From: Escherichia coli | GTDB lineage: Bacteria > Pseudomonadota > Gammaproteobacteria > Enterobacterales > Enterobacteriaceae | Assembly: GCF_022846255.1 (NCBI RefSeq) | Contig: NZ_AP025682.1 | Strand: one strand, 5' to 3' | DNA length: 64,000 bases | Shown: positions 32,201 to 38,200 of the stretch, piece after piece | Position numbering within the stretch: position 1 is the first letter of the stretch | Layout: each line of letters starts with the position of its first letter | Position numbers: made by a program

Positions 32201-35200
32201 GTTGTCGAACAGGTAGTTTACACCACCACGCCAGGTGAACTCTTTGTCGTCACGTTCAGATTTATTACCGTAATCACGGTTGAAAGATGACTGATCGGCC
32301 CAGTCATAGCGACCGCCAAGCGTAACCAGCACTTTATCCCACTGCGCCTGATCCTGAACATACAGGCCGGTTTGTTTCTGTTTCAGCAGAACGCGGTATG
32401 GACCAGACGGATTCGGGTGAGCGCCAAAATCAAAGTCACTACGGTCTAAATTATAGATATCAGATGGTGCAACTGAACCGGCATATCCGAACCAGGAGTC
32501 GATGTCATTACGCATACGCATAAAGTCAACGCCAGTCAGCAGAGTGTGATCCACAGAACCGGTTGCGAATTTGCTTTGCAACTGAGTATCAACAGAGAAG
32601 TTTTCTAACTTCTCATTATCGATAACGTACTGACGAGTCAGTGTATGGCCCCATTGAGACTGCGGGATACTTAAACATGGACTCGCCTTGAGTGCCTCCT
32701 GGTCTTTGGTATACAGCGGATCTGAACACATACCGTAGCCATATACGCTCTTTTGCGAAACTTTATTTTGCGCAAAGCGCAGGTTCTGACGCACAGTAAA
32801 GGTGTCGTTAAATTCGTGGTCGAAGCTATAACCAATCATCTTCTCGTTACGAGAATAGGTGTTGTTCTTCGCCCCTTCGTTAAAGTCTGTCGGCAGACGC
32901 TTACCGTTTGGCAGCGGCTCAACGGTCCCCTCTTTCGGCAGCCAGCCGTAATAACCAGTTTCCGGCTCGTTCTGGAAGTAAGAAAGGAAGGTGAAATTGG
33001 TTTTATCGTCCGGACGCCAGGTGAACGCCGGTGCAATAGCATAACGCTGCTCTTCTGACCCTTTCTGCTGGGCATTGGCAGAACGCGCAAGACCGGTCAG
33101 GCGATAAGAATAAACGCCGTCATCATCCAGTGCATCGCTGAAGTCAAAACCGGTCTGGAACAGGCTGTCAGTCCCGGCCTTAAACTGAACTTCTTTCAAC
33201 GGTTCAGTGGTCGGACGCTTGCTGACCATATTCAACAGACCGCCAGGACTGCTTTTACCGTAAAGCACGGAAACCGGGCCACGCATAATTTCAGCACGTT
33301 CCAGCATATACGGGTCGATGACCGCATCGTTATAGAAGTTGCCCTGCAACTTCAGGCCATTCAGATAGTTATTCTGGCTTTGGCCGTCTGCCGCAAATCC
33401 GCGGATGATCAGGTAATCATAAGTATTAGATGCGCCACGGGTTCCCACAGCAACGCCAGGGGTATAGCTAAGCGCTTCTTTCACCGACTTAGGCTGATGC
33501 AGCGCCATCTCTTCAGCGGTGACGACAGAAATAGATTGAGGTACTTTTTGAATCGGCGTATCGGTTTTAGTGCCGGTAGCTGACTGTCGCGCCGCAATAG
33601 TTGCAGCCGGCCCCCATGCGCTTTCTTGCGGCGCAGGTGCAGCGGTAACGGTGATAGTGTCTTCTTTCGGTTCAACCGCTGCCTGTGCATAAACAGACAT
33701 GCCGCTAACCGCTGTGGCTACTACAACTGCGATTTTACGCAGTGAGTGTTTTGGCTGAGCAGTTTTGGAAGGTGCCATTGGTATTTCTCTAGTGTAAAGT
33801 GAATGATAACGTAAACGAGAATGATTATTATAAAGATGAGATAATATTCGAAACGCTGGCGGGTTCGCAAGCGGTACGCAATCTGCGCATTCCTGAAGGG
33901 TCAATAAACAATCAGATGAAAAGAAAGGGTTAATACTTTGGAGGGGATGTTATTTTACCGGATGGCAGCTCGCCATCCGGTATATCACGCTTAGACGTTA
34001 ATTACTCCCAAACATATCTTTAATCCAACCGGCTACACCGTCGCTGTCTTTCTGCTCTTGCTGAGCAGGTTGCTGTTGCGGCTGTTGCTGCGGCTGAGAA
34101 GACTGATCAAACGGATTGCCTGACGGTTGCTGCTGCATCTCACTCTGCTGGCACAGCGATTGCGGATCGCTGGTCCAGACCGGCAAGACACGCATACCAC
34201 CGCTGCAAACAAAGTTGCCGTCGTAGTCCACGCCCATATCTGCAATATCTTCTGGCGGAACAAGATTCAGCGGCGTTGGCGTCTGGTTAGCCAGATAACG
34301 CTGATAAATCGACATTGCCCCGCTGGCACCATACAGTTTGGTCGGCTGGTTGTTATCACGGCCGACCCAGGTGATGGTCACCGTGCTCCCATCAATGCCC
34401 GCAAACCAGGTATCTACGTTATTGTTGGTAGTCCCTGTTTTCCCTGCCAGATGCAGGTTCGGGTATTTCGCCCCAAGCTGACGTCCCGTACCGCGTTGTA
34501 CAACCTGCTGCATGGTCCATAGTGTCAGATACGCCGCCTGCGCCGGAACAGCGCGTTCCGCCTGCGGGAAGCTCTGATACAACACCTTGCCGTCTTCTGC
34601 GATGACTGAACGTAGCGCGGAAAGCGGAGCACGATTACCACCGCTGGCGATAGTCTGGAAGGCCTGCGCCACTTCGATTGGCGTTAAGTTCAACGCCCCC
34701 AACAACATTGCTGGAACTGGATTCAGTTGATCTTTCGGCACACCCAGTTTAATCCAGGTCTCCGTAACCGCAGGCAGCCCCAACGCCATGCCCAGATTCA
34801 CCGTCGGCACGTTCATCGAACGGGTCAACGCATCTACCAGCATCACCCTGCCACTTTCGCTATAACGACGATCATCGTTCTGCGGTGACCAGACCTGGCC
34901 ATTCGGCTGACGCAGCGCGATTGGCGCATCGGCAATCCACGTATTTAAACGATATATTTTCGGCTGGCTTAAGGCCGTTAGATAAGTCGCTGGTTTTGCA
35001 AGGGAACCAATCGAACGACGCGCCTGCATCGCACGATTGTAGCCCGCAAACTGCGGCTCAGAACCACCGACCATCGCACGAACTTCACCGCTAAAGCGGT
35101 CAACAACCACAATCGCGGTTTCAAGATCGCTCAACTTACGCTGTTTCTTCAGTGCCGGAATGCCTTCCACGGCGGCTTTTTCTGCCGCGTCCTGGGCCAC

Positions 35201-38200
35201 CGAGTCAAAGGTAGTGAAGATCTTCACGCCGGAGAGATCTTTTACCTTATCGCCTAATTTCGCCTGCAGCTCCTGACGCACCAGCTGCATAAAGGCTGGC
35301 TGAGGAGAGATCACCCCACCGCGCGGCTGAACACCCAGCGGACGCGCACTCAGCATGTCGTAGAGTTCTTGATCAATAATTTGTTGCTGTTGCAGCAAAC
35401 GTAGTACCAGGTTACGTCGCTCCAGCGCCAGTTTCGGGTTACGCCACGGGTTGTAGATGGACGCCCCTTTCACCATACCCACCAACAGCGCCTGCTGATC
35501 GAGGCTCAATTCTTCTACCGGGCGACCAAAGTAATACAAGCTCGCCAGCGGGAAGCCGCGGATTTCGTTGTCGCCGCTCTGACCGAGATACACCTCGTTC
35601 ATATACAGCTCAAGAATACGGTCTTTGCTGTAACGCGCGTCCATGATCAGCGCCATGTAGGCTTCGTTCGCTTTACGCCAGTAAGAACGCTCGCTGGAGA
35701 GGAACAAGTTTTTAACCAACTGTTGCGTCAGCGTACTCGCCCCCTGCACCGTGCGTCCGGCAGTCAGGTTTGCCAGCACCGCACGTCCGATTGAGTAGAG
35801 ACTGATCCCATCATGCTCGTAGAAATGACGGTCTTCTGTCGCCAGCAAAGTATCCACCAGCAAATCCGGGAAACCACTGCGCGGCACAAACAGACGCTGC
35901 TCACCGTTTGGCGAAGAAATCATGGTGATCAGGCGCGGATCAAGACGGAAGAAACCGAACTGACGGTTGTTCTCCATATTGACGATCGTCGCCAGATGAT
36001 CGCCATCAAAGGTCAGACGTGCGCGCACCTGCCCTTCTTTGCTGTCCGGGAAATCAAACGGACGGCGGATCATCTCAATGCTGTTGGCCTGTACGGTAAA
36101 CTCACCAGGACGGGTCATTTTCGAGACCTGGCGATACTGGGTCGCCTCCAGCAGCTTCACCATCTCGTTCTTGCTGATGGTCATGTCTGGCTCAAGGTTG
36201 ACCATTCGGCCATAAACTGCCGCGGGCAATTGCCAGACCTTGCCATCAATACGGCTGCGAATTTTTTGATCGAGATAAACGCCGTAAATGGCGATCAGCA
36301 CGGCAAAAACGATAGCCAGTTTTAGCAGCAGCCATAGCCAGCCGCGTTTGCCACGAGGCTTACGCCCTTTGCCTTTGCCCTTACCTTTGCGCGGCATCGG
36401 TTCTTCATCCTCATAGTCATCATAATCGTCGTAATCATCGTCATCTTCGTAACGACGACGGCTTACCTTTTGTTTGACCGGACGCGTCGGTTTCCCTTTG
36501 CGTCCAATTGGCTCGCGGTCATTCCCGGCCATGCTTTTTCTCCGCAATATTCAGGCGCAAAAGCCCGATTTTCTGTTCTTCTGTTGCAAGACAGAAGAAG
36601 ATATCTCTCAAATTTGCTTTGGTCTTCACGAATACTTTTTCGTTCGTCGCGTCGGTGCGGTGTTTGCCGGGTCGTCCGGCCAGACATGTTTGGGATAACG
36701 CCCTTTCATCTCTTTTTGCACCTCACGGTACGCTCCTTTCCAGAAGGCGCTCAAATCACGCGTGATTTGCAGCGGCCTTTGGGCAGGGGAAAGCAACTCC
36801 AGCACCAACGGTACGCGCCCCTGGGCGATAGTCGGATTAGTGGCCTCACCAAACATCTCCTGCATTCTCACCGCCAGCGCGGGCGGGTTATCTTCATGGT
36901 AACGAATGGCGATCCGGCTTCCCGTCGGCACAGTGTAATGCGCAGGCAATTCACTATCCAGACGTTGCTGCATTACCCAATCAAGTAATCCACGCAGTGC
37001 CTGATAAATATCGAGTGATTTCAGGCCGCGTAGCGAATGTACGCCTGTCATATGCGGCAGTAGCCACGTTTCCAGCGTCGCCAACAAACTTTCATCATCA
37101 ACCGCTGGCCAGTCATATTCCGGCAACCACTTTGCGGCGCATAACAAACGCAAGCGTAGCTGTTCCGCTTCCGCCGTCCAGTTGAGCACGCTTAAACCTT
37201 TATCACGAATGCCGTTAAGCATCGCCTGATGCAACTCGTCTTCCGAGGGTTTCGCCAGCGGTTGCACTTTTACCGTCAACTGACCAATTTGCAGCCGACG
37301 CCAGGCTTTCAGCGTACCTTGCGCGTCATCCCACTCCACGGTGTCCGATTGCTGTACCAGCTGCGGGCAGCGTTGTACTAACTCATCAATATCGACCGGC
37401 AGCGCCAGTAAAATCCGTGCATCCGGTGAGGCGCTGCCCTGCAATAATAACGGTGCGATCAACCATTCGTGGCGGCTTAGCGCATCGTCGGCATCGAGCA
37501 TCGCCCCCATGCCGTTCGCCAGTTGATAGCGTTCATCTTGCCCACGGCGACGAGCAATGCGATCGGCATACGCTCTGGCAAGTAGCGGCGCGATAAGCGA
37601 ACTGTCTGCCTCACCGCCGCGTACGTTTAAGCGTTTTAACAGTTGCTGACTACGTTGCTGCCAGGCGGGTTGATTGCGCGAAAAAGCCACGCCCAGGTCA
37701 CTATTGCCCATCCGTGGCGGCTCTTCGAGAATGGCGGCAATTTTTGCCGCGGTAGCAGCTTCGTCGTCGTTCTTCGCGCTAACCAGCATTGCCGCTAAAC
37801 GCGGATCGTTACCCAGCGCTGCCATTTTTTGCCCTTGCGCGCTTAGGCGTTCACCGTCCAGCGCCCCCAGCATCCGTAACAGGCGTTTCGCGGCCAGTAG
37901 ATTCACCGTTGGCGGTTGATCCATCCAGCTCATCTGCGCCGGATCGCTGCATCCCCATTGCAGTAATTCCATCAGCAAACCGGAAAGATCGCTTTGTAAG
38001 ATCTCCGGTTCACTTTGTGCGGCAGCGCGTTCTGCTTGTTCTTTGGCGATTAAATGCAGGCAGATACCCGGCTCCAGACGCCCGGCACGCCCGGCACGTT
38101 GCGTCATCGACGCCTGACTAACGCGTTGAGTAACCAGCCGCGTAAGCCCTGTACGCGGATCAAAACGCGCCACCCTTTCCTGGGCACAATCCACCACCAG

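Follow-up and report, generated by a model that had tools for sequence, protein, structure and literature searches.

Length alleles in the predicted disordered tails of penicillin-binding protein 1B (mrcB) of Escherichia coli

The mrcB locus and its product

The window, that is the whole stretch of 64,000 nucleotides (nt) of Escherichia coli DNA analysed here (contig NZ_AP025682.1, assembly GCF_022846255.1), carries on its minus strand mrcB (ponB), the gene encoding the cell-wall synthase penicillin-binding protein 1B (PBP1B). The protein begins and ends with peptides of strongly biased composition, and these tracts, with the differences in length that they show among strains, are the subject of this work. 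The parts of the gene that matter for what follows are listed here, with the basis of each in brackets.

33998..36532, minus strand: mrcB (ponB) coding sequence (CDS), PBP1B alpha isoform, 844 amino acids (aa) plus stop codon (open reading frame (ORF), translation, Pfam and RefSeq matches)
36452..36532, minus strand: basic N-terminal peptide, residues 1-27, net charge +8, alpha-specific, with a conserved motif (charge; motif invariant in 45 loci of about 10 genera)
36401..36451, minus strand: acidic/aromatic block Y28-E44, net charge -13, alpha isoform only (sequence and shuffles)
36395..36397, minus strand: ATG of Met46, start of the gamma isoform (sequence; invariant in homologues)
36341..36391, minus strand: basic juxtamembrane KG block R48-G64, net charge +10, both isoforms (sequence and charge)
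36272..36340, minus strand: transmembrane helix W65-L87 (AlphaFold2 helix 63-97; Pfam PBP1_TM)
34052..34135, minus strand: Gln/Pro-rich (Q/P) periplasmic tail Q800-Q827 (sequence and shuffles)
34001..34045, minus strand: invariant C-terminal peptide S830-N844 (conservation among alleles and genera)

The CDS is 2,535 nt long. The ORF that contains it (33998-36547, minus strand) opens at a TTG five codons upstream of the annotated start, and in every RefSeq locus fetched, these being identical or near-identical loci, the start is the ATG at 36532 (MAGNDREP...). Four Pfam domains, PF14812 PBP1_TM (residues 1-79), PF14814 UB2H (113-197), PF00912 Transgly (209-379) and PF00905 Transpeptidase (473-714), match the product above their curated cut-offs and in the order that defines a class A PBP1B. 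Moreover, the PBP1B chains of the PDB match the protein at E = 0, the DNA matches at 100% to the locus are annotated as mrcB in RefSeq E. coli genomes, and the order hrpB-mrcB-fhuA is the same as in annotated E. coli genomes.

K-12 PBP1B (UniProt PBPB_ECOLI) is the product of the same gene in the same synteny and is identical to the protein of the window at 842 of 844 residues, the two substitutions being N604H and V782I, whereas the two genes show 98 synonymous or other nucleotide differences. The tails are the same in both, with (KG)4, DDDD and the long Q/P allele. The isoform structure and the disordered N-terminal domain of the K-12 protein are as described in a 2026 study (PMC13423804).

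Composition and repeat structure of the tracts

The bias of the tracts was assessed with 20,000 shuffles of PBP1B's own residues. The acidic block consists entirely of Asp, Glu and Tyr (17 of 17 residues, against a shuffle maximum of 11), the KG block is made up of Lys, Arg and Gly at 16 of its 17 positions (maximum 13) and the Q/P tail has Gln or Pro at 19 of 28 (maximum 16). For none of the three did any shuffle match the observed bias (0/20,000), as is expected of low-complexity sequence.

The preliminary description of this DNA had placed biased peptides at both ends of mrcB, and that is where they lie. It had also spoken of trinucleotide repeats and of short tandem codon repeats, a wording that does not hold at the DNA level. 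Tandem Repeats Finder (minimum score 30) returned weak imperfect arrays at the N-terminus (period 6, 4.2 copies at 78%; period 9, 4 copies at 77%) and no array in the C-terminal tract, and the description as trinucleotide repeats was therefore dropped. In a scan for perfect tandem repeats (unit 3-12 nt, total of at least 12 nt) the only one found in the tracts was GGCAAAGGCAAAGG in the KG tract, with 2.3 copies of 6 nt, and elsewhere in mrcB there was one unrelated GCAACAGCAACA at codons 381-384. The nucleotide repeats are broken because synonymous codons alternate (GAT/GAC, AAA/AAG, GGT/GGC/GGG and CAG/CAA).

Length alleles among E. coli strains

Tract lengths were compared among 5,426 complete RefSeq E. 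coli genomes, 5,424 of which were matched by a 261-nt query from the N-terminal part of the gene, and short queries centred on the tracts were used to tell insertions and deletions (indels) from single-nucleotide polymorphisms (SNPs). With the 261-nt query 338 of the 5,424 genomes fell below 99% identity, and the four rows sampled among them were all 3, 6 or 9 nt shorter. These 338 records below 99%, and 771 below 95%, obtained with the longer queries, agree with the allele counts from the short queries. The sites at which length differs are the following.

36434..36439, minus strand: GAT GAT (D32-D33), site of a 3-nt deletion, DDDD to DDD (alignments of ETEC1738, MLI121, LR14 and 7CC)
36366..36379, minus strand: GGCAAAGGCAAAGG, site of a 6-nt deletion, (KG)4 to (KG)3 (repeat scan; alignments of AF16 and LR14)
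34067..34096, minus strand: CAGCCG CAGCAACAG CCG CAACAGCAA CCT, site of the 9-nt and 12-nt deletions (alignments of BL21, PK8276, ST131, AGR4587, isolate 538, 7CC and VE-V11-M)
34071-34088, minus strand: imperfect repeat of two 9-nt units, GCAACAGCC/GCAACAGCA, with the 12-nt spacing CAGCCG...CAGCCG nearby

Loss of one GAT, by which DDDD becomes DDD, was found in 180 genomes and in 15 others on a SNP-bearing haplotype (195/5,424, 3.6%), and loss of one GGCAAA unit, which turns (KG)4 into (KG)3, in 143 of 5,423 (2.6%). The most frequent change was a 9-nt loss in the Q/P tract giving QPQQQQP, carried by about 733 of the 5,424 genomes (13.5%, counted as partial matches), BL21 and ST131 included; a 12-nt loss of one QQQP unit in the same tract accounts for at most 27 genomes (the 80-90% identity band). 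The major alleles are present in 96-97% of genomes at each N-terminal site, and the long C-terminal allele in about 86%.

Fifteen loci were fetched and aligned with the window, giving 16 full-length alleles. Gap columns occur in this alignment only at CDS 94-96, CDS 154-159 and CDS 2437-2453, and each of the 16 alleles reads as an uninterrupted ORF that encodes 840-844 aa. The indels are all in frame (3, 6, 9 or 12 nt) and of one unit each, and every one of them drops one copy of a direct repeat, be it GAT/GAT, GGCAAA/GGCAAA, GCAACAGCC/GCAACAGCA or CAGCCG...CAGCCG. The 9-nt deletion was found in BL21 and in three B2 genomes, one of them ST131, and strain 7CC shows a second 9-nt product, distinguished by its register or by a single SNP. 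Relative to the window allele, no insertion was seen in the E. coli genome set, in which 3-nt insertions could hide among the SNP variants. Each exact allele protein occurs on 2 to more than 1000 contigs of an independent collection, and within lineages, BL21 and ST131 among them, the alleles stay constant. Repeat number thus varies between strains and does so only inside the tracts; the preliminary description had expected such polymorphism, and the tracts are indeed variable across E. coli, not invariant.

Two GTDB representatives labelled E. coli, SCPM-O-B-8794 (L026) and E69 (L029), carry further N-terminal tract alleles that were not seen in the RefSeq complete-genome set. One of the pair lacks a DDY unit and the other has another variant of the tract; both have (KG)3, and the protein of L026 is 838 aa long. 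Three metagenome proteins from ENA (P0002, P0003 and P0005, 849-850 aa) were considered as long alleles. They have an E. coli-like N-terminus and a Citrobacter-like C-terminus, are probably chimeric co-assemblies and were left unused.

Predicted disorder of the tails and their variation across genera

An AlphaFold2 model of PBP1B, built on an alignment of 84 sequences, had a mean predicted local distance difference test score (pLDDT) of 85.6. Residues 1-61 and 801-832 are modelled at pLDDT below 50 and without secondary structure, the acidic block being at about 40, and the first helix begins at residue 63. All seven PDB PBP1B sequences begin at residues 53-58 and end at 804, and the tails were removed from the structural constructs (PMC8119973). 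Moreover, HMMER alignments to representatives at no more than 64% identity span only from about residues 45-75 to 745-805; the distant homologues align without the termini and the tails are therefore lineage-specific. Both tracts are thus predicted to be intrinsically disordered, on the basis of the model and of the design of the constructs. Within E. coli as well as between genera the length of the tracts shifts by in-frame indels and the flanking motifs stay fixed, as is expected of disordered linkers.

With a degenerate DNA pattern 46 loci were obtained from the GTDB species representatives in the genera Escherichia, Citrobacter, Enterobacter, Salmonella, Lelliottia, Leclercia, Trabulsiella, Yokenella and Huaxiibacter, and conservation was counted on 45 loci from about 10 genera. 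All non-Escherichia genera sampled with this pattern have (KG)3. Within Escherichia, (KG)4 occurs in E. albertii, E. whittamii and further members, and outside the genus it was met once, in an Enterobacter hormaechei protein; (KG)4 thus seems to have been gained in Escherichia. The acidic block is 14 to 20 aa long, and in Citrobacter werkmanii it contains a (GAT)5 run. In the Q/P stretch length differs widely between species, and forms resembling the 9-nt and the 12-nt loss are present in Escherichia species other than E. coli. Conservation, with conservative changes only, is seen in residues 1-14, in the EDEEPMPR junction, in the NPF-x-x-S core and in the end SDGVAGWIK(D/E)MFG(S/G)N, although the conservation of the junction is partly imposed by the search pattern, which itself demanded Met46.

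The N-terminal cytoplasmic tail and the two isoforms

Two products of the gene have been reported experimentally, the alpha isoform being translated from codon 1 and the gamma isoform from codon 46 (PMC13423804). In that study only alpha PBP1b was enriched and active at the division site, to which its N-terminus recruits the protein, probably via FtsA; R6 is critical and residues 1-14 are conserved (PMC13423804). These 14 residues are the sole N-terminal interaction mapped there and lie outside the acidic and KG tracts, and the acidic block is absent from the discussion of the same paper (PMC13423804).

Taken as a whole, the N-terminal tail would be a charge-block polypeptide of the order plus, minus, plus, composed of the recruitment peptide (residues 1-27), the acidic block (28-44) and the KG block (48-64). 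The acidic block is an alpha-specific spacer that links the recruitment peptide to the membrane-proximal basic block. By the positive-inside rule, an established principle of membrane topology, the KG block would most simply be the positive-inside anchor of a type II transmembrane helix.

The end of the acidic block has a further property at the DNA level.

36408..36412, minus strand: GAGGA (codons E41-D42), Shine-Dalgarno-like, 11 nt upstream of the internal ATG (codon conservation)

This end reads GAG GAT GAA GAA CCG ATG. All 45 loci, from about 10 genera, have GAG at codon 41. Elsewhere in the tract Glu is encoded by both codons (35 GAA to 46 GAG), and at E43 and E44 mostly by GAA. An in-frame ATG at codon 46 with a purine-rich, Shine-Dalgarno-like element upstream is the arrangement expected of a gene with two starts. 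The codon pattern suggests that GAGGA, at the end of the acidic tract, also serves as the ribosome-binding site for gamma, so that the last codons of the block would supply the invariant GAGGA ahead of M46. In the 3-nt deletion allele the change lies 22-24 nt upstream of GAGGA and the element is intact.

The C-terminal tail and its end peptide

Two smaller features belong to the C-terminal tail.

34100..34117, minus strand: conserved island NPFDQS (N806-S811) inside the Q/P tail (cross-genus conservation)
34010-34033, minus strand: predicted short amphipathic helix, residues 834-841 (AlphaFold2, low confidence, pLDDT about 56)

The island has the form NPF(D/E)(Q/H)S in Escherichia, Citrobacter, Enterobacter, Salmonella and Lelliottia; N806, P807, F808 and S811 are invariant and Q810 is nearly so (H in one Leclercia metagenome-assembled genome). 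It is a candidate short linear motif. Within the PBP1B tail, conservation is highest at the extreme C-terminus. Among the E. coli alleles the sole change in S830-N844 is D/E at residue 839, and across about 10 genera the peptide is conserved except for K838R, D839E and G/S at 843. Its hydrophobic residues W836, I837, M840 and F841 are spaced i, i+1, i+4, i+5 and would form one face of an amphipathic helix.

Counterparts of the end peptide were found in distant relatives. In a set of 143 full-length PBP1B-like proteins (within P0135-P0284), representatives of 50%-identity clusters, the pattern of Trp, Phe or Tyr followed by hydrophobic-x-x-hydrophobic-hydrophobic occurs within the last 20 residues of 40, in comparison with 3% of internal windows and a mean of 2.0 representatives (maximum 8) after shuffling of the last 40 residues. 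Examples are NWFERLFGG, SWYESLFGS, WWQRLFN and RWFKSLFD, and the F of the motif is often followed by G. No description of a function for the C-terminal end peptide or tail, nor of the mrcB tract polymorphism, was found in the searchable literature.

The Q/P linker, variable in length, would connect the transpeptidase domain to this invariant amphipathic end peptide. We put forward, as a tentative reading that is possible but doubtful as a whole, that the Q/P tract is a length-tolerant tether for a functional peptide at the C-terminus, and that the GAG GAT codons are constrained as a ribosome-binding site that sets the ratio of alpha to gamma. The end peptide would then bind either to a membrane leaflet or to a hydrophobic groove, be it in a periplasmic partner or in PBP1B itself, and NPFDQS could be another short linear motif. 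That the Q/P tract may tether a functional end peptide is a lead and not a result.

Origin of the indels

It is very probable that the tracts are disordered low-complexity spacers and that their strain-to-strain differences in length are tolerated by-products of slippage at short direct repeats. One-unit in-frame deletions or duplications would arise occasionally at GATGAT, GGCAAAGGCAAAGG and GCAACAGCC/GCAACAGCA by slipped-strand mispairing, and the resulting alleles would persist since linker length is weakly constrained, the indels being presumably neutral. We infer slippage as the mutational mechanism because every deletion takes out a single copy of a short direct repeat, and it accounts for the alleles most economically.

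When the 16 alleles were placed in neighbour-joining trees, every indel turned up on two or more unrelated mrcB backgrounds: (KG)3 is carried by the distant LR14 and by a B2 allele forming the sister of the window, DDD by one clade (which includes a DDDD member) and again by LR14, and the 9-nt deletion by 7CC, by BL21/PK8276 and by a B2 subclade. In addition, a perfect repeat of two 6-nt units of Gln codons in a folded region (codons 381-384), used as a control, showed no indel in 1,045 matched genomes or in the 16 alleles.

The preliminary description had called the tracts slippage-prone. This is borne out in so far as indels at short direct repeats fit slipped-strand mispairing, but the tracts are not hypermutable simple-sequence repeats, because they have at most 2.3 perfect copies, change by one unit only, show no insertions relative to the window allele in the E. 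coli genome set and keep a constant length within lineages such as BL21 and ST131. A 7-bp inverted repeat (CTGCTC..GAGCAG region, codons AQQEQK; 34051-34069) adjoins the 9-nt direct repeats of the common deletion, and it is speculative that a hairpin at this place could favour misalignment.

Several points weigh against the explanation by tolerated slippage. The allele counts were taken from BLAST identity bands and evenly spaced sampled rows, without typing of each genome, and about 15 N-terminal and 4 C-terminal variant records were left uncharacterised. The folded-region control is only partial, SNPs having broken the megablast seeds so that 1,045 genomes were searchable. The allele at about 14% is common to successful lineages (ST131 and BL21-type) and could in principle be selected, and the homoplasy could stem from short-patch recombination, the 3' end of mrcB beside fhuA being about 4% divergent from K-12. 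As regards the Shine-Dalgarno role of GAGGA, it is read from the invariance of synonymous sites alone, in a stretch that is generally well conserved, and the spacing of 11 nt to the ATG exceeds the optimum.

That recombination has spread a few ancient alleles, as a trans-specific polymorphism and instead of recurrent slippage, appears unlikely. It would be in keeping with the position of the mrcB 3' end next to the highly polymorphic fhuA, with the mosaic relationships of this end, which are unlike those of the rest of the gene (two trees; 96% identity to K-12), and with the presence of both long and short Q/P forms in other Escherichia (long in E. albertii, of the 9-nt-loss type in MOD1-EC7003 and of the 12-nt-loss type in E1V33). 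However, three deletion products within one stretch of 30 nt (the 9-nt loss, the second 9-nt variant of 7CC and the 12-nt loss) argue for repeated events, gain or loss of KG is seen independently in Enterobacter, and all events coincide with direct repeats. An origin of the length differences in sequencing or assembly errors is effectively refuted. Some long-read assemblies can miscall low-complexity regions, but every indel is a multiple of 3, identical indels recur in hundreds of complete genomes from many laboratories, the exact proteins are found on up to more than 1000 contigs and the alleles track lineages (BL21; the B2 group with the fimbrial insertion described below).

It had also been proposed that repeat number tunes the interactions of PBP1B, in which case copy number would be selected for the reach or affinity of alpha towards FtsA, for the alpha/gamma ratio or for the reach of the C-terminal peptide. 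We consider this improbable. Length alleles do exist and some are common, the 9-nt loss reaching the frequency given above in a group that includes ST131 and BL21; every indel recurs on unrelated backgrounds; the N-terminus has a mapped interaction function (PMC13423804); and the Q/P tract sits between two conserved motifs, hence its length sets a tether distance. Nevertheless the changes amount to 1-4 residues inside disordered segments of 60 and about 30 residues, at positions that fall below pLDDT 50 and were cut from the structural constructs. The recruitment residues, 1-14, are outside the tracts, the gamma isoform is still an active synthase without the whole acidic block, and GAGGA is left intact by the 3-nt deletion upstream of it. 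Residues 781-844 are given as dispensable for basic function, with reference to Terrak 1999, in a 2023 paper (PMC10600066). Moreover, the related genera form a patternless continuum of lengths. The length variation of the tails is ordinary for disordered spacers, largely known and without sign of a regulatory switch.

Neighbouring sequences

The last about 200 nt of mrcB and the adjoining spacer (33960-34200) have about 96% identity to K-12, and only 404 of the 5,424 genomes match them at 99% or more. The FhuA of the window (31520-33904, minus strand) appears to differ from that of K-12 at many positions that we take to be surface loops. The divergence at the mrcB 3' end and fhuA may reflect recombination, or diversifying selection whose effect extends beyond the gene for this phage and colicin receptor.

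Three B2-like genomes (one ST131, AGR4587 and isolate 538) have a fimbrial chaperone-usher operon directly after mrcB (locus positions about 3135-5394), where the window and K-12 have fhuA; in these genomes the mrcB 3' end is divergent and the Q/P tract has the 9-nt deletion. On the other side of the gene, the hrpB-mrcB spacer (36533-36625) is 93 bp long in the window and in most other strains fetched, against 196 bp in K-12; the extra about 102 bp of K-12 are probably an inserted repetitive extragenic element.

A scan of 33700-36800 against the Rfam gathering thresholds gave no RNA family, and a scan of the same region for promoters and terminators gave nothing above shuffle expectation; the tracts thus hold no hidden RNA or regulatory element. 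The lone terminator-like match in this region is an antisense inverted repeat within the coding region, and the antisense ORFs within mrcB (for example 35813-36325, plus strand) were regarded as mechanical by-products.

Relation to known systems

The contingency loci of Haemophilus, Neisseria and Campylobacter, that is their phase-variable genes, resemble mrcB in having indels at short tandem units, presumably by slipped-strand mispairing. Such loci have a long perfect array of a unit of 1-6 nt, typically in at least 6 copies. In contrast, mrcB has no long perfect array (at most 2.3 units), its changes are in frame and there is no on/off switching; its alleles are rare or lineage-stable and do not show the high variability among close relatives that marks contingency loci. 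mrcB is not a member of this class.

Closer parallels are found among the repeat-rich spacers of other envelope proteins, among them TonB with its Pro-rich (EP)n(KP)n spacer and TolA with its extended linker. Like the PBP1B tails, these are of low complexity, join an anchor or catalytic body to a terminal motif, vary in length and are largely dispensable in assays. The composition of the PBP1B tracts is different (Q/P or D/E/Y/KG and not EP/KP), and a spanning function for them would be an analogy only. As for the end peptide, C-terminal amphipathic helices that target the membrane are known from MinD (..KKGFLKRLFGG) and FtsA, and the C-terminal anchors of PBP5 and PBP6 are of this type as well. 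The PBP1B end GWIKDMFG and the ends of its homologues share with the MinD, FtsA and PBP5 type the pattern hydrophobic-hydrophobic-x-x-hydrophobic-hydrophobic at the end of the chain. However, the PBP1B peptide is periplasmic, belongs to a protein that is already anchored by a transmembrane helix and is less basic in its E. coli version, and membrane binding would again be an analogy.

The cytoplasmic N-terminal tails of Gram-positive class A penicillin-binding proteins bind GpsB (cited in PMC13423804). They are like the PBP1B tail in that a disordered cytoplasmic N-terminus recruits the synthase to the division site. They differ from it in that the sequences are unrelated, the partner is another one (FtsA is predicted for PBP1B) and only Enterobacteriaceae have the acidic and KG blocks.

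Significance

Few cell-wall synthases have been studied as well as PBP1B, and it is established that the protein has disordered termini and two isoforms, so that the claim about the tracts in itself matters little. Of more practical weight is that BL21 and ST131 carry an 841-aa allele of mrcB and that alleles of 840-843 aa exist; owing to these length alleles, residue numbering is not universal after about residue 816, or in some strains after residues 30-50. The catalogue of alleles also provides natural "linker-length mutants" for the model of alpha-isoform recruitment published in 2026. The last 15 residues are more conserved than much of the surface of the catalytic body and have distant counterparts, and structural work has removed the C-terminal 40 residues. 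The C-terminal end peptide thus offers an inexpensive lead, open to testing, in a region of a drug target that is still unexplored.

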